Part shown: piece by piece, positions 427-63,854 of the stretch
How the letters are laid out: each line of letters begins with the position of its first letter
How positions within the stretch are numbered: the first letter of the stretch is position 1
Source: Candidatus Moraniibacteriota bacterium
Lineage (GTDB): Bacteria; Patescibacteriota; Minisyncoccia; Moranbacterales; UBA11712
Direction: 5' to 3'
DNA length: 64,000 bases
NCBI GenBank assembly: GCA_028695025.1
Contig: JAQVJV010000002.1
Coordinates: 18,998-82,997 of the forward strand
Notes under the pieces: model-generated
Database searches by the model: none
What the model saw: the letters and a program-made list of their open reading frames with translations, nothing else
What the model was told of the DNA's origin: nothing
Translations under genes and position numbers: made by a program

Positions 427-1167
427 ATGAGGTTAAAATATATGCAAACAGAAGACCTAAAAAACGCTGGTTTAAGCCAAAATGAGGCAAAAGTGTACCT
501 CGCCGCTTTGGAATTGGGCGAAACAAGCATATACAGGCTTGCCAAGAAATCAGGCGTGAAAAGAACGACGACCTATTTGGCCGTCGAAACCCTCAAGGAA
601 AAAGGGCTTATTTCAAGCTATGAACGTGACAATACCTTAGTTGTTTATGCGGAAAATCCCAAAAAACTCACAGATCAGCTGGAAGAACGGAAAAGAGCCC
701 TTGAAAAAATCATGCCAGAGCTTCTCGCTTTCACGAACCTCATCGACAAAAAACCGAAAATTCGCTATTTCGAAGGGAAAGAGGCGTACAAAGAAGTATT
801 TGGCGATGTTTTGAATTATCCTGACAGTGAAACCCTGGTTACCTTCAATGAAAAATTCTGGGACTGGGATGGTTATTTTAAGACCTATTTCATGCCCAAA
901 CGAAAGGAGAAGAAGATTTGGGCTCGAATTCTTTTTCGTGACACGCCGGAATTGAGAGCTGTCGGAGCGCAAGCGGAAGAATATCTCTCACGCGCCAAGT
1001 TTGTTCCGTCTGAAAATTTCAAAATCGGGATTGAAATGGTTCTCTATGGGCGCGACAAGGTTGGGATGGTTTCTTATGAAGAAGAAATTGCCATCATCAT
1101 CGAAAGCAAGATGATATACGACACGCAAAAAAGTTTTTTTGAAGTGATTTGGGAGGGGGCGAAATAA
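427..1167 (+). CDS. TrmB-family transcriptional regulator (paralog 1)
   Basis: N-terminal wHTH LSQNEAKVYLAALELGETSIYRLAKKSGVKRTTTYLAVETLKEKGLIS plus a TrmB-type C-terminal domain. About 45% identical to the ORF at 14174-14926. Confidence 0.7.
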   Translation: MRLKYMQTEDLKNAGLSQNEAKVYLAALELGETSIYRLAKKSGVKRTTTYLAVETLKEKGLISSYERDNTLVVYAENPKKLTDQLEERKRALEKIMPELLAFTNLIDKKPKIRYFEGKEAYKEVFGDVLNYPDSETLVTFNEKFWDWDGYFKTYFMPKRKEKKIWARILFRDTPELRAVGAQAEEYLSRAKFVPSENFKIGIEMVLYGRDKVGMVSYEEEIAIIIESKMIYDTQKSFFEVIWEGAK

Positions 1168-2767: not shown

Positions 2768-5700
2768 ATGTCTCAAGAGGCCAAAACCCTCGGGGTGAAA
2801 GAGTCTTTCAGCCCGCAATCCTCTCTCCATAAGAGGAAATTTTTCAACCGGCGCGCAATGGTGTCCCTTCCGAACTTGATCGAAACGCAAACCATGTCAT
2901 ATGACTGGTTTCTCGCGGAAGGTATGCGTGAACTCCTCGATGAGGTTAACCCAATTGAGGATTTCACCGGAAAAGATTTGGAACTTTCTTTTGGAAAATA
3001 TTATCTTGACGAGCCGAAATACGACGAGAAAACGTCGAAAGAAAAAAATATCTCTTTTGAGGCGCCGCTCCGGTGCGCGGTGAGCCTTCTCAACAAACAG
3101 ACCGGGGAGGTGAAAGAACAGGAAGTTTATCTTGGAGACTTGCCGATCATGACCGACCGGGGAACTTTCATCATCAACGGCGTGGAAAGAGTGGTGGTGA
3201 GCCAGCTTATCCGAAGCCCGGGAGTCTTTTTCACGATGGAATATCAGAAGGGAAAGAAACTTTTCGGGGCGAAAATCATTCCGAACCGCGGAGCTTGGCT
3301 CGAAATGGAAACGGATCTTGACGGAGCCATTTGGGTGAAAATCGACCGCAAGCGAAAAGTGGCGATCACTTCTCTTTTGCGGGCTTTTGGCATTTCCACG
3401 GACGAGCTTTTGGCCAAAACTTTCGCCGATGTGAACAAAGGCGAGACGAATTATCTTGAAGCGACGATTGGGCGCGACGCGGCGAAGACCCAGGGAGATG
3501 GATTCAAGGAGGTTTACAAAAGAATTCGTCCGGGGGATCTCGCCTCCGTTGAAAACGCGCGGCAGATGATCGAATCGATGTTTTTCAATTTTGAGAGATA
3601 CGATTTCGGAAAAGTGGGGCGATACCGCTTGAACCAGCGTTTGGATGTGGATGAGCCGAATGACGAAGCGCATCGAATTTTGCGTCCGGAAGATTTGGTG
3701 CTGATCATCAAGGAAATTATCAATCTTAATAATAATCCGATGGCGGAGCCGGATGATATCGACCACCTTGGAAACCGGCGGGTGCGTTGTGTTGGGGAGC
3801 TTGTGCAAAACAAATTTCGGGCGGGACTTGCGCGCATGGTGCGAAATATCAAAGACCGGATGAGTACTTGCGATCTTGCCATAGTTGTTCCAGGTCAACT
3901 CGTAAACTCGCGTCCGGTGGCGGCGGCAGTCAAGGAATTTTTTGCTTCTTCCCAGCTTTCGCAATTCATGGATCAGGTGAATCCGCTGGCGGAACTTGAA
4001 CACAAGCGGCGGCTTTCCGCGATGGGGCCGGGCGGTCTCACCCGCGAACGGGCAAGCTTTGAAGTGCGCGATGTCCACCATTCCCACTACGGTCGGATTT
4101 GTCCGGTGCAGACGCCGGAAGGCCCGAACATCGGATTGGTGAATCATTTGTCTTGCTACGCGCGCATCAACGAGTTCGGTTTTCTCGAGACTCCGTATCG
4201 AAAAGTTGAGTTGAAGGACGGCAAGCCGTTTGTCACCAAAGATATTGAATATTTGAACGCGACCGTGGAAGATCGGAAAGTTATTGCTCACGCGGATATC
4301 CTGATTGACGACGATGGATATATCCAGGAAGAAAAAATTGAAGCGCGGGTGAAAGGGAAGCCGTCGGTGATTGAAGCGACGAAGGTTGACTATGTCGATG
4401 TTTCGCCGAAACAGTGTATTTCAATTGCCACTTCGCTCATTCCGTTCCTTGAGCACGACGATGCTCACCGGGCTCTCATGGGTTCAAACATGCAGCGCCA
4501 GGCAGTATCTTGCATTCTGCCGGATTCGCCGCTGGTGGGAACGGGGCTTGAAGACAAAGCGGCGGCTGATTCGGGACAGGTGATCCTTGCGCGCGAAGAC
4601 GGGGAAGTGGCGGAAGTGGATGCGGCACATATCACCCTCAAGACGGAAAAAGACGGAAAATCAACGAAGAAAATTTATTGGCTCCAGAATTTCGAACGCT
4701 CGAACGCTTTCACTTGTATGAATCAGATTCCGCGGGTTTCCCGGGGACAAAAAGTGGCGAAAGGCCAGCTTCTCGCGGACGGAGCTTCGACGGACAATGG
4801 GGAATTGGCGCTCGGCCAGAATGTTTTGGTGGCGCTCATGCCTTGGGAGGGGAACAACTTTGAAGACGCTATCATCATTTCTGAACGGTTGCTTCAGGCG
4901 GATCGCTATACTTCCATTCATATTGAAGATTTTTCAGTGGATATCCGTGATACGAAGCTTGGCCCGGAAGTGGTGACGCGAGATATTCCGAATATCGGTG
5001 AAGAGCGGCTCAAAAATCTTGACGATACGGGGATCATCCATATTGGAGCGGAGGTTTCTTCGGGAGATATTCTTGTCGGGAAAATTTCACCGAAAGGGGA
5101 AGGCGATCTCACCCCGGAAGAAAGATTGCTTCGCGCCATCTTCGGAGAAAAATCAAAGGACGTGAAAGATACTTCGCTTTATCTTCCGCACGGGGAACAT
5201 GGAAAAGTGGTGGATATCAAAATCTTTTCGCGCGAGCAGGGCGACAAGCTTCCGGCAGGAGTGATCCAGCAGATTCAGGTGAGTGTGGCGCAGCTTCGCA
5301 AAATTTCAGTGGGCGACAAGCTTGCCGGACGACACGGAAACAAGGGAGTGATTTCGAAAATTGCGGCGGTCGAAGATATGCCTTGCCTTCCGGATGGCCG
5401 ACCGGTGGATATCATACTCAATCCGCTTGGAGTGGCTTCGCGTATGAACATCGGCCAGATTCTTGAGGCGCATCTCGGTTGGGCGGCTTCCGAACTCGGA
5501 TACAAAATCGCAAGTCCCGCCCTTGACGGAGTGAGCGAACAGAACATAAAAGAGGAACTTAAGAAAGCGGGCCTTCCTGAAGACGGAAAGATGCGGCTTA
5601 TGAACGGAAAGACAGGAGAGTACTTCGACGAAAAAACCATGGTGGGATATATGTATATCATGAAGCTCAACCACTTAGTGGAAGACAAAATTCACATGCG

Positions 5701-10569: not shown

Positions 10570-11115
10570 TCAAAATATTTTTATTGTTTTTTGCGAAAAT
10601 ATGTTTTTGATGAATTCATCTTTTTTCTTTCGGCGGATTTTCAGCTCGTTTCCCGTCATGTCCACGATATTCAGCTCCCGTCCCAATTTTTTCTCGAGCG
10701 GCAGAATCAAGCGCTTGGCCGAGAGGGAAGAGTGGCTTCCGACAAGCAGCAAATCAATGTCGCTTTCCTGCTGAAAAGAGTTTTTGGCGAAAGAGCCGAA
10801 AATCCAAGCCGATTCCAGCCCTTTTATTTTTTCCATTTCTTCTTTCAGGAGGTTCGCGACTCCGTATTTGGCATTATAGATTTGTTTTGTTTCCTTGAGA
10901 AGAGGATATTTTTCGTTGAGAAAAAAGTATTTTTGGTTTCCGGCCGCTTCCGAAAGCAAAATGCCTTCCTGTTCCAATTCCTTGAGCTTGCGAAAGAGAT
11001 TTCCCGGATCAGCTTCCAGAATTTCGGCCAGTTCGTTGATGTAATGTCTCCGGTGCGGATTGAGAAAGAAATATCCGAGCACTTTCACAGTGATTTTTGA
11101 GCGGAATTCAAGCAT
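10570..11115 (-). CDS. Minimal nucleotidyltransferase with N-terminal wHTH (MntA-like antitoxin)
   Basis: GSFAKNSFQQESDIDLLLV matches the GS-x(9-13)-DxD minimal NTase motif. N-terminal wHTH NELAEILEADPGNLFRKLKELEQEGIL. Confidence 0.75.
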   Translation of the reverse strand: MLEFRSKITVKVLGYFFLNPHRRHYINELAEILEADPGNLFRKLKELEQEGILLSEAAGNQKYFFLNEKYPLLKETKQIYNAKYGVANLLKEEMEKIKGLESAWIFGSFAKNSFQQESDIDLLLVGSHSSLSAKRLILPLEKKLGRELNIVDMTGNELKIRRKKKDEFIKNIFSQKTIKIF

Positions 11116-14173: not shown

Positions 14174-14926
14174 ATGCTATCTAACGATCTCGAAAAACTG
14201 GGCTTGAGCGACAAGGAAGCCAAAGTATATTTGGCGGTTTTGGAGTTGGGGGAGGGAAATATCGCCCAAATTGCCAAAAAATCGGGCGTGAAGCGGACGA
14301 CAGTCTATGATATCGCGCTCTCGCTAAAAAGTAAGAATTTATTGCTGGAAACCATGAAAGGCAAAAAAAATATCTATTCCGCCGAAGATCCCCGGAAATT
14401 GGACGATGTCTATGACGAGCGAAAGGCGACGCTCAAAAAGATTTTGCCGGAACTGCTTTCAGTCATGAACGCGATTGAGAAAAAGCCGCGCATCCGATAT
14501 TTTGAGGGCGCGGAAGGAATCAAGGAAGTTTATAAAGACACGCTCAAATATCCCGACCAGGAAATCCAGGCTTGGGTGACGAGTGAAGCGATGACCAAAT
14601 TCGACGTTGAATGGCTCGAAAAATATTATGTGCCCAAGCGCCTTGAGAAAAAAATCTGGGCGCGGGTGATTGCGCCAAAAACAGAGGAGGTTGTCGATTA
14701 TCAAGAACGCGATGAAAAGTCTTTGCGGCAAACACGATTGGTCGACCCGAAAGAATTTCCCATGGAAGTGGAGATCAATCTCTATGGCGGGCGGAACATC
14801 GGGGTCATGGCTTTTGGCGAGCAGATGGGCCTTGTCATTGAGAGCCGGAAGATATACAAAACGCTTAAGAGCATATTTGAGCTTGGCTGGAAATCTCTCG
14901 AAAAATATGCTAAGATGAATCAGTAA
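14174..14926 (+). CDS. TrmB-family transcriptional regulator (paralog 2)
   Basis: LSDKEAKVYLAVLELGEGNIAQIAKKSGVKRTTVYDIALSLKSKNLL wHTH. The C-terminus aligns with paralog 1 (KKIWARV..., ...VIESRKIYKTLKSIFE). Confidence 0.7.
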   Translation: MLSNDLEKLGLSDKEAKVYLAVLELGEGNIAQIAKKSGVKRTTVYDIALSLKSKNLLLETMKGKKNIYSAEDPRKLDDVYDERKATLKKILPELLSVMNAIEKKPRIRYFEGAEGIKEVYKDTLKYPDQEIQAWVTSEAMTKFDVEWLEKYYVPKRLEKKIWARVIAPKTEEVVDYQERDEKSLRQTRLVDPKEFPMEVEINLYGGRNIGVMAFGEQMGLVIESRKIYKTLKSIFELGWKSLEKYAKMNQ

Positions 14927-14970
14927 ATAATATCTTTAAATTACTCTTATTCCTCCAATATTCCTCCAAA

Positions 14971-15006
14971 CCCCCTCTCTAGTCTCCCCCTTGGCAGGGG
15001 GAGAGG
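14971..15006. repeat. Palindromic repeat variant (CCCCCTCTCTAGTCTCCCCCTTGGCAGGGGGAGAGG)
   Basis: CTCCCCC/GGGGGAG stem with loop TTGGCA. Sits between trmB2 and ftsK. Related to the CCCCCTTT...AAAGGGGG subfamily. Confidence 0.6.
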
Positions 15007-26750: not shown

Positions 26751-26786
26751 AAGGCGGATACAAAATGTGTCCGCCTTGATTTTTTA
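26751..26786 (+). terminator. Rho-independent terminator
   Basis: AAGGCGGATACAAAATGTGTCCGCCTT followed by GATTTTTT. Confidence 0.6.
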
Positions 26787-26825
26787 ACCTCACCCCGTCC
26801 CTCTCCTTATCAAGGGAGAGGGAGT
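26787..26825. repeat. Palindromic repeat element copy (ACCTCACCCCGTCCCTCTCCTT-ATC-AAGGGAGAGGGAG)
   Basis: Same family. Lies immediately 3' of manC on the minus strand. Confidence 0.8.
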
Positions 26826-28020: not shown

Positions 28021-29367
28021 ATGGGTGAAATTAATCCGAAAATTTTCAAGGCCTATGATATCCGGGGGGTTTATCCGGAGGAAATAAACGAGGAAGCGGC
28101 GTATAGCATCGGCCGGGCTGCGGTCCAATATCTCGATGCCAAAAGGGTCGCGGTGGGCCGCGACATCAGGGAATCGAGCTCGGCGCTTTTTGAAAATCTG
28201 GCGAAAGGCATTACCGACCAGGGGGCGGATGTGTATGACTTGGGGCTTGCTTCCACGCCGATGGTTTATTTCGCTTCGGGGAAATTGGGGGTTGACGGCG
28301 CGATTGCTCTCACGGCTTCCCATAATCCGGCGGAATATAACGGAATGAAAATTTGCCGGGCGGAAGCGGTTCCGGTCGGAGAAAATAGCGGCTTGTTTGA
28401 TGTCCGGGATCTTGCGATTGCCGGAAAATTTCCAGAAGCTTCTCGAAAAGGGGAAATCATAAACAAAGAAGAAATCAAAAAAGAATACGTCGAATATTTT
28501 TCCGGGTTTGCCAAGCTGGGCGGGCGGAAGTTCAAGATTGTGATTGATTTTGCGAACGCGATGGGAATTTTGGAAAAAGAAATATACGGAAAATTTCCCG
28601 AAAATCTTGAAATAACGCCGCTCTATGAAAATTTTGACGGAAAATTTCCCAATCATGAGGCCAATCCCTTGAAGACGGAAACGCTTGCCGAACTTCAGGC
28701 GAAAGTGGTTGGAACGAATGCCGATTTGGGAATTGCTTATGACGGGGATGCCGATCGGGTCGGCTTTGTCGATGAGACGGGGCAAATCGTGCCGATGGAT
28801 CTCGTCACCGGGCTCATTGCCAAAATTGTCCTTGAAAAAAAACCGGGCGCGAAAATTTTCTACGACCTTCGTTCTTCAAAATCGGTGAAGGAATATATTG
28901 AAGAAAACGGAGGAGTGGCGCTTGAGTGTCCGGTGGGGCACGCGAATATCAAGAAAATCATGCGTAACAAAGGCGGCGTTTTTGCCGGCGAGCTTTCGGG
29001 GCACTATTATTTCCAAGAAAATTTCATGGCGGAGGCCTCGACGCTTGCGGCGCTTATGCTTTTGGGCGTGATGGCGGAAACGGGCGGGAAAATGTCGGAT
29101 CTTGTGAGAGGCATCAAGCGTTATTTCCACTCGGGGGAAATTAATTCCGAAGTGGCAGATAAAGATGCGGTTATTGCGGCGCTCAAGGAAAAATATTCGG
29201 ACGGAAAAATTTCAGAACTTGACGGCGTGAAAATCGAATATCCCGATTGGTGGTTTAATGTCCGGCCGTCGAACACCGAGCCGGTCTTGCGCCTCAATTT
29301 GGAAGCGGACACGGAGAAGTTGATGGAAGAGAAAAGGGATGAAGTGCTGGGATTGATCCGGGGGTGA
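28021..29367 (+). CDS. Phosphomannomutase/phosphoglucomutase
   Basis: Active-site TASHNPAEYNGMKI, metal-binding DGDADR. 448 aa. Confidence 0.9.
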   Translation: MGEINPKIFKAYDIRGVYPEEINEEAAYSIGRAAVQYLDAKRVAVGRDIRESSSALFENLAKGITDQGADVYDLGLASTPMVYFASGKLGVDGAIALTASHNPAEYNGMKICRAEAVPVGENSGLFDVRDLAIAGKFPEASRKGEIINKEEIKKEYVEYFSGFAKLGGRKFKIVIDFANAMGILEKEIYGKFPENLEITPLYENFDGKFPNHEANPLKTETLAELQAKVVGTNADLGIAYDGDADRVGFVDETGQIVPMDLVTGLIAKIVLEKKPGAKIFYDLRSSKSVKEYIEENGGVALECPVGHANIKKIMRNKGGVFAGELSGHYYFQENFMAEASTLAALMLLGVMAETGGKMSDLVRGIKRYFHSGEINSEVADKDAVIAALKEKYSDGKISELDGVKIEYPDWWFNVRPSNTEPVLRLNLEADTEKLMEEKRDEVLGLIRG

Positions 29368-29370
29368 TAG

Positions 29371-29460
29371 GCCCCTCTCCTTTTCCTAAAGGGAGAGTTG
29401 GAGAGGGTTTATTTATAACAAAAATCCCCCTTTAATCCCCCTTTATTAAAGGGGGAAAAT
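29371..29460. repeat. Two adjacent palindromic repeat copies (CCCCTCTCC...GGAGAGGG and CCCCCTTTATTAAAGGGGG)
   Basis: Both subfamilies of the hairpin repeat lie directly after the pmm stop. Confidence 0.7.
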
Positions 29461-58647: not shown

Positions 58648-59760
58648 TTATAGGGCCAATCCTGCGTCGGCCTCCAGATTTTTCCAGTTGGTTTCAAATT
58701 TCTTTTTGTTTTTGGCGAGAGTGTATTGGAAGTATCCGGCGACGGCGATCATGGCGGCGTTATCGAGCGAGTATTGAGTATCGGGCATGAAGTATAGAGT
58801 ATTTTTCAGATTATTTTTGATGGCTTCTCCGAGCTGTTTTCGCAGTTCTTCATTCGCGGAGACTCCGCCGCCAAGCAAAATCGTTTTCGGCTTGTATTTT
58901 TTTGCCGCTTTCAAAGTTTTTGCCACTAAAACGTCAATGACGGCTTGCTGAAATTCGGCACAAAGCGCGGTGGTCATTTTTTTGTCTTTCAATATCACCG
59001 GATTTTTTTTCACAGCATAAAGAGCGGCGGTCTTGAGGCCGGAAAAAGAAAAATTGAGATTATTCGAATTAAGCATCGGCCGGGGGAGCCGAAGGCTCAA
59101 CCTTCGGCGGTCCGAAGGTTGAGCCTTCGGATTTGCGGATTTTTGCGCGGTCAAAATTTTTTCAGCTTCAGCCGCAACTATCGGTCCGCCGGGATAACCA
59201 AGATTCAAAATTTTCGCCACTTTATCAAAAGCCTCGCCAGCCGCATCATCCAGGGTTTCTCCGATAATCCGAAAGTCCATGTGTTTCTTCATGAGTATGA
59301 GCTGTGTATGCCCGCCGGAGACAATTAAGGCTAAAACCGGAAATTTGATAGATTTGGAATTTGGAATTTGGTTATTGGAATTTTCGCGAACAAAGTTCGC
59401 GTATATGTGTCCCGCAATATGATGCGCTCCGACAAGCGGTACGCGCCAGGCGTAGGCGAGAGCCTTCGCCGAATTGGTGCCGATGAGAAGCGCCGGGATG
59501 AGCCCCGGACCCTGGGTGACGGTGATGATATCAATGTCTTTCGGCGCAAGTTTGTTTTCCCGGATGGTTTTTTTCAGAAGAAGCGGCAGGTTTTTAAGAT
59601 GCTCCCGGGCGGCAAGATTGGGGACAACTCCGCCGAAAGGAGCGTGGATTTTCACTTGCGATGACACTAGGTCGGAAAGCACCTGAAAGCGGCCTTTTTC
59701 GGCTTTCACGAGAGCGACGGCGGTTTCATCGCAGGAAGTTTCAATGGCGAGGATATTCAT
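58648..59760 (-). CDS. tsaD: tRNA N6-adenosine threonylcarbamoyltransferase TsaD, with a 14-aa palindrome-encoded insertion
   Basis: MNILAIETSCDETAVAL. AHHIAGH metal site. GGGVSAN. Insert ...KAQPSDRRRLSLRL... encoded by the 59089-59130 palindrome. Confidence 0.9.
   Translation of the reverse strand: MNILAIETSCDETAVALVKAEKGRFQVLSDLVSSQVKIHAPFGGVVPNLAAREHLKNLPLLLKKTIRENKLAPKDIDIITVTQGPGLIPALLIGTNSAKALAYAWRVPLVGAHHIAGHIYANFVRENSNNQIPNSKSIKFPVLALIVSGGHTQLILMKKHMDFRIIGETLDDAAGEAFDKVAKILNLGYPGGPIVAAEAEKILTAQKSANPKAQPSDRRRLSLRLPRPMLNSNNLNFSFSGLKTAALYAVKKNPVILKDKKMTTALCAEFQQAVIDVLVAKTLKAAKKYKPKTILLGGGVSANEELRKQLGEAIKNNLKNTLYFMPDTQYSLDNAAMIAVAGYFQYTLAKNKKKFETNWKNLEADAGLAL
59089..59130. repeat. GC-rich 19+4+19 nt palindrome CCGAAGGCTCAACCTTCGG-CGGT-CCGAAGGTTGAGCCTTCGG inside tsaD
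   Basis: Each 19-mer is itself a 7-bp-stem hairpin, and the two are exact reverse complements. In-frame, 42 nt. Confidence 0.9.
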
Positions 59761-63187: not shown

Positions 63188-63784
63188 TTGAAAATATTAA
63201 GCCGCCGATTCTATTCTCAAAACACAATCAAGATTGCCCAAGAACTTCTGGGTTGTTTTCTTGTCCGGGAATATCGCGGAAAAATTATGAAAGTGATAAT
63301 CACGGAAACAGAAGCCTATATTGGGGAAAATGATTTGGCGTGTCATGCGTCGCGCGGTCGGACGCCGCGGACGGAAGTGATGTATGGCGTGCCGGGGCAT
63401 GCCTATGTATATATGATCTATGGGATGTATCATTGCCTGAATGTTGTGACGGAAGAAAAAGATTTTCCCGCGGCGGTTTTGATCCGGGGCGGGATAAATC
63501 CCTCTCCAGCTCTCCCTTTAGCAAAGGGAGAGAGTCCGGGTTTCCCCCTTTGGCAAAGGGGGACTAAGGGGGATTTAAACGGTCCCGGAAAACTCTGCCG
63601 GTTTTTGAAAATTGACCGAAAACTTAATACATGGGATCTCACAAAAAGCGAGAAATTGTGGATTGAGGAACGAGATTCGAAAATAAAATTGCCGAAAGTG
63701 ATAAAGTCTCGGCGTATTGGCATCGATTATGCGAAACATTGTAAAGAATATTTATGGAGATATTCCCTGTCATCCCGCACTTGA
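63188..63784 (+). CDS. mpg: DNA-3-methyladenine glycosylase (Mpg/AAG family) carrying an in-frame palindromic-repeat insertion
   Basis: ETEAYIGENDLACHASRGRTPRTEVMYGVPGHAYVYMIYGMYHCLNVV...AVLIRGG[INPSPALPLAKGESPGFPLWQRGTKGDL]NGPGKL...RIGIDYA. The bracketed segment is encoded by two hairpin repeats. Confidence 0.8.
   Translation: MKILSRRFYSQNTIKIAQELLGCFLVREYRGKIMKVIITETEAYIGENDLACHASRGRTPRTEVMYGVPGHAYVYMIYGMYHCLNVVTEEKDFPAAVLIRGGINPSPALPLAKGESPGFPLWQRGTKGDLNGPGKLCRFLKIDRKLNTWDLTKSEKLWIEERDSKIKLPKVIKSRRIGIDYAKHCKEYLWRYSLSSRT
63505..63575. repeat. Two palindromic hairpin repeats inside mpg (CTCTCCCTTT-AGCA-AAGGGAGAG and CCCCCTTTG-G-CAAAGGGGG)
   Basis: Same repeat family as the intergenic copies. 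Located in a surface-loop position of Mpg. Reading frame preserved. Confidence 0.85.
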
Positions 63785-63854
63785 TGCGGGATCCAGAGAT
63801 ATATCTAGTTATGTTTTCTGGATCCCGGCTCAAAGGCCGGGATGACATAATCTA

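Follow-up and report, generated by a model that had tools for sequence, protein, structure and literature searches.

How does a palindromic DNA segment come to lie in frame inside the gene of a DNA repair enzyme, and is it a mobile repeat or a part of the gene that changed in place? The question is raised by mpg, the gene of a 3-methyladenine/alkylpurine DNA glycosylase of the alkyladenine DNA glycosylase (AAG) family, in a 64,000-nt stretch of contig JAQVJV010000002.1 from a Candidatus Moraniibacteriota bacterium (the whole stretch is referred to below as the window). An earlier, sequence-only reading had described two palindromes within mpg as an in-frame insertion of a repeat family also present between genes, had likened them to the Rickettsia palindromic elements (RPE), and had taken them as direct evidence that the family is mobile. 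According to the present analysis, an 81-nt segment of mpg probably belongs to a family of dispersed, non-autonomous palindromic repeats of the repetitive extragenic palindrome (REP)/REPIN or RPE type and is read through as a tolerated loop of the enzyme.

The 81-nt element and its host gene

The host gene mpg is located at 63188..63784 on the forward strand and encodes 198 amino acids (aa) from a TTG start. Its open reading frame (ORF) matched Pfam PF02245 (Pur_DNA_glyco) with E = 5.3e-58 and 195.8 bits (gathering cut-off 27) over profile positions 2-178 of 181, and the human AAG chains were recovered as sequence matches of the product at E = 1e-24. The nearest homologues were named from metagenome-assembled genomes of Moranbacteria, Parcubacteria and Patescibacteria. 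A first AlphaFold model built on a 54-sequence alignment (mean predicted local distance difference test score, pLDDT, of 61) was discarded, and a model built on an alignment of 120 sequences was used instead (pLDDT 82.6, predicted template-modelling score 0.81). A Foldseek search with this model returned the human AAG structures 1EWN, 1F4R and 1BNK with template-modelling (TM) scores of 0.74-0.76. The residues E42, Y44, H53, Y78, N85, L98 and R100 were aligned to Glu125, Tyr127, His136, Tyr162, Asn169, Leu180 and Arg182 of AAG, respectively, and the AAG-equivalent catalytic residues were invariant across 120 homologues; the roles of Glu125, Tyr127, Tyr159 and Arg182 in AAG have been described (PMC12347255). 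Based on the Pfam match, the AAG fold of the model and the invariant catalytic residues, the product of mpg looks like a functional enzyme despite the insert.

The complete composite element was assigned to 63496..63576 on the forward strand and comprises two REP-like units joined head-to-head. Its predicted translation is NPSPALPLAKGESPGFPLWQRGTKGDL (codons 63497-63577), that is, 27 residues encoded in frame between AAVLIRGGI and NGPGKL, which include the stretch NPSPALPLAKGES. The DNA reads GCG GCG GTT TTG ATC CGG GGC GGG ATA on the left flank, AAT CCC TCT CCA GCT CTC CCT TTA GCA AAG GGA GAG AGT CCG GGT TTC CCC CTT TGG CAA AGG GGG ACT AAG GGG GAT TTA across the insert, and AAC GGT CCC GGA AAA CTC on the right flank. 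Listed from left to right on the forward strand, the parts of the element are the left end h1, AAATCCCTCTCC (63496..63507), which in addition forms a mirror repeat with that hairpin's left arm in hairpin 1; hairpin 1, CTCTCCCTTT AGC AAAGGGAGAG (63510..63532), with a perfect 10-bp stem; the central spacer AGTCCGGGTT (63533..63542); hairpin 2, TCCCCCTTTG G CAAAGGGGGA (63543..63563), also with a perfect 10-bp stem; and the right end h2, AGGGGGATTT (63567..63576), which pairs with h1. Both of the palindromes claimed at first therefore exist, 1-3 nt away from the coordinates then given. The spacer is variable and forms, together with the hairpin loops, the least conserved part of the copy alignment.

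The terminal AAATCCCTC and GGGGGATTT of the element are mutually complementary. Its ends are AAATCCC and GGGATTT, and the 9-bp ends AAATCCCYC and GRGGGATTT were paired in 97.8% of the cells of the copy alignment, so that terminal inverted repeats are present. The element can be described as two inverted 37-nt units, each of which is composed of a pyrimidine-tract/purine-tract hairpin and a short 5' extension. The pattern CCCTTTRGCAAAGGG of the hairpin core was matched three times in the window, at two sites within mpg (one of them on both strands), against 0.01 matches expected from window shuffles. The 106-nt stretch that contains the element (63485-63590) was predicted to fold into one hairpin of -59 kcal/mol (z = -4.7).

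The dispersed repeat family and its conservation

The claim that the same family also occurs between genes was borne out by a second window copy, by a copy past the mpg stop in a related genome and by dispersed copies in metagenomes. The second window copy of both units is located at 29375..29458 on the reverse strand, directly past the stop of a phosphoglucomutase-like ORF (28021..29367), and was matched by blastn with 91% identity over 33 nt (module A) and 86% over 37 nt (module B). Its units are arranged tail-to-tail around an AT-rich spacer, in reversed relative order compared with the mpg insert and with the extensions pointing inward. Intergenic hairpins of the same pyrimidine-arm/purine-arm architecture were also found at 326-361, 400-422, 2107-2142, 14960-15004 and 26786-26823. 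All of these lie a few bases from ORF starts or stops, and two of them adjoin genes of TrmB-like helix-turn-helix regulators (427..1167 and 14174..14926).

Three family copies, including one inside mpg, were found on the 89-kb contig L081, which encodes the orthologue P0006. The second of them (10739-10822) is a full copy of 84 nt with 89% identity to the window insert and starts exactly at the mpg stop; its TAAA end provides the TAA stop codon, so that one copy lies inside the gene and one abuts its end. The third is a tail-to-tail dimer located about 1.6 kb further downstream. A metagenome scan with CCCYCTCCARYTCYCCCTTT matched at least 120 contigs. Among the matches listed, on the fetched contigs, 71 copies of the full unit AAATCCCYCTCC-AR-CTCYCCCTTT-loop-AAAGGGRGAG were counted (17 head-to-head as in mpg, 35 tail-to-tail and 19 single), most of them outside long ORFs or at ORF ends. 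Viral contigs gave four pattern matches, none with the hairpin, and hence no sign of carriage by phages; in Rfam, no family matched the insert, whether at the gathering threshold or with E values of up to 1 allowed.

Within the same 71 copies, two subfamilies were distinguished by T or C at corresponding places in the extension and in both arms (56 and 14 copies, respectively, with one mixed). The variant agreed at all three places in 70 of the 71, and both subfamilies were represented in mpg. Since only two subfamilies exist, this agreement may reflect common descent. It was also observed that the 5' extension of each unit mirrors the left hairpin arm (TCCCTCTC-CAG-CTCTCCCT), in the window at 63499-63517, 14972-14992 and 328-348 and likewise in all family copies; extension, left arm and right arm of a unit could form a pyrimidine-purine-pyrimidine triplex.

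Copies read in frame were not confined to mpg. Hosts identified by Pfam were UvrD/PcrA helicases, MiaB-like methylthiotransferases and family 4 (GT4) glycosyltransferases (two sites each), and further a Mur ligase, peptidyl-tRNA hydrolase (Pth), dihydrouridine synthase (Dus) and methionyl-tRNA synthetase (MetRS, metG). The in-gene copies occur in either orientation, with two or more frames used in each, and typically encode peptides such as NPSPxLPLxKGES, KSPSxSPFKKGGE, LSPFxKGRVGEGF and SLPLxKGELERDF. Because the arms are pure pyrimidine or purine tracts, TAA, TAG and TGA do not occur in any of their six frames and stops can arise only in loops and junctions, which explains the tolerance of such copies inside genes. 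An extreme multi-copy case was seen on metagenome contig L121, where a 412-aa membrane protein contains at least five repeat-derived segments (IPLNPPFTKGE, LSPFVKGRVGEGF, SSPFVKGRIKEGF, LSPFLKGRIKGGF and SPLNPLFINGE). In one GT4 glycosyltransferase (L103, 6555-6650), the composite encodes VEINPSPTLPLQKGES and has an mpg-like 5' junction, GTGGAAATAAATCCC; the shared junction may be a coincidence or may hint at a preferred target.

Besides the one in mpg, the window holds another palindromic insert in frame, which comes from a different repeat family. It is located in the ORF of TsaD, the t6A synthase (58648..59760, reverse strand), where the palindrome CCGAAGGCTCAACCTTCGG CGGT CCGAAGGTTGAGCCTTCGG with a perfect 19-bp stem lies in frame at 59089-59130 and encodes about 16 extra residues (NPKAQPSDRRRLSLRL). 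Solved structures, including that of Thermotoga TsaD, have a gap at this place.

The age of the mpg copy was estimated from five orthologues of other samples (L081-L086), all with this insert at the corresponding codon of Mpg proteins that are about 72% identical; the copy in the window is accordingly no recent event. The amino-acid identity of the insert (0.59-0.78) was no higher than that of the flanks (0.71-0.80), whereas its nucleotide identity was 0.80-0.91 against 0.70-0.77. At third codon positions, identity was 0.86 in the insert, 0.63-0.68 within 10 codons of it and 0.49-0.54 in the farther flanks, which points to insert DNA that is either constrained or repeatedly refreshed. A long allelic recombination tract as the source of this identity was tried and found unsupported, given the values of 0.63-0.68 nearby and about 0.52 beyond. 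The mean numbers of differences were 12.6 among the mpg copies, 13.1 between these and copies at other loci and 12.2 among the others; the mpg copies were ungrouped, and the one in the window was nearest to two non-mpg copies. The data are compatible with repeated acquisition from, or conversion by, a homogeneous family, and equally with one old insertion kept near the consensus by selection.

Selection of that kind is the core of the best-surviving alternative, which is nevertheless unlikely: the hairpins would be kept for a role as nucleic acid, either a DNA signal for protein binding or of the uptake type, or an mRNA structure for stability or translation, and coding would be a side effect. 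It is favoured by the fairly sharp boundary in third-position identity, by the fact that copies from unrelated loci and different lineages all lie within 2-12 differences of one consensus, and by the stems, 97.6% paired in the alignment of 15 full copies while loops and spacer vary. The bias of the family to ORF ends and to the interiors of housekeeping genes, several of them for genome maintenance, also resembles that of REPs (PMC3733652). However, the same pattern is predicted by recent insertion or gene conversion of a young, homogeneous mobile family. Compensatory changes were almost absent, and as the stems hardly vary, selection for structure is inseparable from conservation of the sequence or a recent common origin. 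Unrelated palindromes occupy the mpg site in other lineages, which argues against a role of this particular sequence there, and the insert has no Rfam match.

Translation, origin of the loop and mode of spread

The reading of the element as a tolerated loop was examined at 86 mpg DNA loci, which were found via the peptides flanking the loop or via full-length orthologues, regardless of frame. At 86 of 86 the loop was in frame and free of stops, whatever the type and length of the insert. The preserved frame and the lack of stops indicate that the insert is translated, as a loop of 27 residues judging from the codons, and make splicing or ribosomal bypass unlikely; the claim that the frame is left unbroken was thus upheld, with all 27 quoted residues encoded. 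In the AlphaFold model, residues ~104-128 were predicted as coil with pLDDT 47-69, between a strand (95-103) and a helix (133-139) that both exceeded 90. Where the earlier reading foresaw a surface loop, the model accordingly has a loop predicted without structure and at low confidence, flanked by a strand and a helix that are both modelled with confidence.

Removal of the insert before or during translation, by RNA processing with religation or by ribosomal bypass, would give a mature enzyme without it. Known examples of coding sequences with bypassed palindromic inserts are gene 60 of phage T4 and the mitochondrial byp elements, and the hairpin in mpg is very stable (-44 kcal/mol for the loop DNA by itself and -59 kcal/mol when short flanks are included). 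Still, the constraint at all 86 loci is unexpected for a segment that is removed, and neither a take-off/landing codon pair nor a splice-like motif was seen, so that removal is highly improbable.

For the origin of the loop, the stretch from AAVLIR[GAS] to [ND]GPGKL was compared in the 120 closest homologues. An 11-aa loop, VKIEGIDHKKT, was found in about 45 of the 120 (58-75% identity), or in about 56 when weaker matches of the flanking motifs were read by eye. The insert type of the window occurred in seven, its own protein (P0001) included, and the remaining homologues carried, by our count, roughly 20 different inserts of 13-45 aa. In the wider family, represented by 80 species-representative genomes, the canonical LEPxEGIxxMxxxRG...LT segment (23-29 aa), shortened loops of 6-13 aa and assorted palindromic inserts were found, and in human AAG the position of the insert is taken by 32 unrelated aa.

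Loop length in itself is no evidence for insertion, because at this site the canonical Mpg/AAG proteins carry 23-32 aa of unrelated, partly helical sequence. Unrelated segments of similar length thus do exist in distant lineages, but the identity of the insert with the repeat family still holds. The evidence for insertion is this identity together with the short loop of the close clade, which retains the EGI of the canonical segment. A neighbour-joining tree of the GT4 neighbour and the Mpg flanks (524 aa), with 100% support for the nested clades, placed only short-loop genomes in the basal lineages. The short loop is hence, on this tree, ancestral in the clade, and the window allele would have exchanged eight codons for 27. 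The word insertion used earlier therefore holds in so far as extra in-frame DNA is present relative to the nearest relatives; strictly, the event was a replacement, in which the eight ancestral codons (EGIDxKKT) were lost. In the same tree, three genomes with the NPSP-type insert fell in a clade with 99% support together with two short-loop genomes and two with other inserts. A neighbour-joining tree from Mpg only (166 columns) was star-like, with scattered loop types, and was set aside for want of resolution. The flanking IRG and GPG codons (TCCGGG/CCCGGA) were also considered as a pre-existing hairpin target and rejected, as the short-loop relatives do not have that pairing.

The comparison with relatives bears on the idea that the insert is the loop of mpg itself, turned into a palindrome where it stood, for instance through template switching in replication. 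The region is hypervariable across the family, and canonical Mpg/AAG proteins have about as many residues there; yet an 81-84-nt unit with identical ends is also found between genes and in at least seven unrelated genes, and the short loop of the basal relatives still aligns to the canonical EGI motif, which leaves this origin with very little credit. That the insert arose in assembly, as an artefact or by chimeric joining at a repeat, is a practically negligible possibility: assemblies do break at repeats, and the identical Logan contig L207 stops inside a neighbouring palindromic element, but five assemblies from other samples (L081-L086, L159) have the insert at the same codon within diverged flanks, and both junctions keep the reading frame. 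L207 was discarded as an independent confirmation, since it is 100% identical over 3050 nt and may share the source sample.

The loop site of mpg was occupied repeatedly. In other lineages it holds at least 12 unrelated palindromic inserts, some of them nested, such as a GGAAGTCCGACTTCC-type palindrome with a 15-bp stem (L004), an AGACGTC-type one (L002), GTAGAGACGCGATTAATCGCGTCTCTAC (L020) and an element with an 18-bp stem (L036). In L010 and L070 the site is taken by an intergenic family of the window itself, AACCTCACCCC-NN-CCCTCTCCTT...AAGGAGAGGG, in both orientations, and further unrelated inserts are numerous at the protein level. Nested-looking inserts were found among the proteins as P0035 in the P0102 type, P0051 in the P0016 type, P0009 versus P0058 and P0019 versus P0037, for example VKIISSSPARG[LPASLRKALLAG]EELEEGWEL versus VKIISSSPARGEELEEGWEL; such sequences suggest insertion into the apices of hairpins. 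The simplest reading of the recurrent occupation is a selection filter, with one tolerant loop in a small, tightly constrained enzyme; a bias of hairpin elements toward existing hairpins may contribute, and so may true target specificity.

Two observations were made in and beside mpg in this connection. The N-terminal half of Mpg in L044 (~3100-3200) has an extra segment, LVRRITPVKSTTSRGARIGEQFDGVKEIRA, which looks repeat-derived, so that the loop after LIR is not the sole place in Mpg that can be hit. In the window, another composite palindromic element (63763-63850) was seen between the stop of mpg and a sigma-70-like ORF (start ~63857); this is the element in which contig L207 breaks off. 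It consists of two inverted GTCATCCCG...CGGGAT hairpins around an inner inverted repeat, GGATCCAGA...TCTGGATCC, and gave a sub-threshold match to Rfam RF02625 (Wolbachia sRNA WsnRNA46; 34 bits, E = 3e-5, gathering score 65).

The sequence of events proposed for the preferred reading, a dispersed palindromic repeat read through in mpg, is as follows. The element would occupy a dispensable predicted surface loop, the ribosome would read through it and the core of the enzyme would stay intact. Its persistence would be favoured by the prior reduction of the loop in this clade from the canonical 23-32 aa to 11 aa, which makes it structurally expendable, by arms that are stop-free in all six frames, and by retention only of those copies whose length keeps the frame. 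A trans-acting, hairpin-recognising enzyme may be the agent of spread, and the closeness of the copies to the consensus may result from gene conversion or re-insertion from other copies, or from selection on the hairpin as DNA or RNA. That many unrelated palindromes, some of them nested, share one codon position of mpg in other lineages would then be explained by selection that filters insertions to a tolerant site, and by hairpins that attract further hairpins.

Several results weigh against this reading. No RAYT (REP-associated tyrosine transposase), IS200-like or other transposase gene was found among the 10 ORFs that adjoin repeats in the window, which is a fraction of the genome. No consistent target-site duplication was found, the flanks of the 15 full copies being merely A/T-rich; a TA duplication fits the copy in mpg and was rejected because it does not fit those termed L081_ig, L116, L103 and L084. 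Neither GTAG/CTAC nor CGTC/GACG occurs anywhere in the 81 nt. The element replaces 24 nt instead of simply interrupting the gene, the monophyly of the NPSP type had a support of only 4% in the two-gene tree, by which a single origin is not shown, and covariation in the stems was weak (two pairs with double changes). Empty and filled alleles within one population were not seen either. From the dispersal of the family to unrelated loci we infer that it is mobile; as direct evidence of mobility, however, the copy in mpg had been overrated, since it is shared with orthologues only ~72% identical.

A bolder proposal, to be regarded as doubtful, is that hairpin-directed insertion and turnover is active in Patescibacteria, or that a DNA or RNA signal is selected there. 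In that case, conserved pyrimidine/purine palindromes would be delivered in frame to loops of many essential genes, and one codon position of mpg would be struck repeatedly by unrelated palindromes, hairpin apices included; the mirror and inverted repeats of the unit could form triplexes used for recognition.

Significance and comparison with known systems

In the tiny genomes of the candidate phyla radiation (CPR), selfish DNA is expected to be scarce, yet the repeat family described here is embedded in genes for repair, tRNA modification, translation and the cell wall. If general, such copies would supply otherwise conserved proteins with lineage-specific loops, would confound gene calling, alignment and structure prediction in these phyla, and would provide a natural map of insertion-tolerant sites. 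The repeated occupation of the mpg site offers a tractable case in which tolerance can be told from targeting. Worth following up are the range of housekeeping genes that carry in-frame copies, the conservation at the DNA level and the recurrent occupation of a single site. In the literature searched, no report of palindromic or intragenic repeats of this sort in Patescibacteria/CPR was found; the element is of the intragenic REP/RPE-like kind already known, in a host phylum for which it had no earlier report among the sources searched.

Among the known short motifs conserved in genes are the DNA uptake sequences of Neisseriaceae and Pasteurellaceae, which are 9-12 nt long, defined by a receptor, very conserved and often arranged as inverted pairs. 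Genes for genome maintenance contain many of them, and they lie in frame where the protein tolerates them. The mpg element is similar to them in its conserved inverted motifs and in its in-frame placement at a tolerant position; an uptake role is a lead only.

With the bacterial miniature inverted-repeat transposable elements (ERIC, Correia/NEMIS and QMITE1), the family shares that it is short, non-autonomous and dispersed, has terminal inverted repeats and is sometimes fused to ORFs in frame (PMC10969869, PMC5896051, PMC2759123). It differs in being much shorter; at the copies studied, neither a consistent target-site duplication nor a parent insertion sequence was recognised.

The likeness to REPs and REPINs extends to more features. 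Hairpin units of 20-40 nt (here 37 nt with 10-bp stems) occur as singles and as head-to-head and tail-to-tail dimers (PMC3733652, PMC3116915), most copies are extragenic and abut ORF ends (in L081 one of them supplies a stop codon), and a dimer can fold into one long hairpin. Intragenic REPs are often dimers that encode 20-30 aa, and genes for replication and repair are frequent hosts of them (Di Nocera et al. 2013, PMC3733652), as is the case for some dimers here. In contrast to REPs, the mpg-type element has no GTAG or CGTC tag, no RAYT gene was found among the 10 ORFs beside repeats in the window, the arms are pure pyrimidine or purine tracts with a 5' extension that mirrors the left arm, and one consensus is common to lineages with Mpg only ~72% identical, the hosts being Patescibacteria. 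As the tag is lacking and RAYT genes were sought at the window repeats only, the element is termed REP-like and is not assigned to the described REP superfamilies.

The RPE, to which the family was compared by description only, are ~100-150 bp long and form Rickettsia-specific families, against a 37-nt unit and an 81-nt dimer in Patescibacteria. Both are palindromic repeats that lie in frame within housekeeping genes of a small genome, are translated, in the present family by prediction, and would sit at places where the fold tolerates them (PMC10969869), and the parallel with the RPE and with intragenic REPs (PMC3733652) drawn by the earlier reading is therefore apt.

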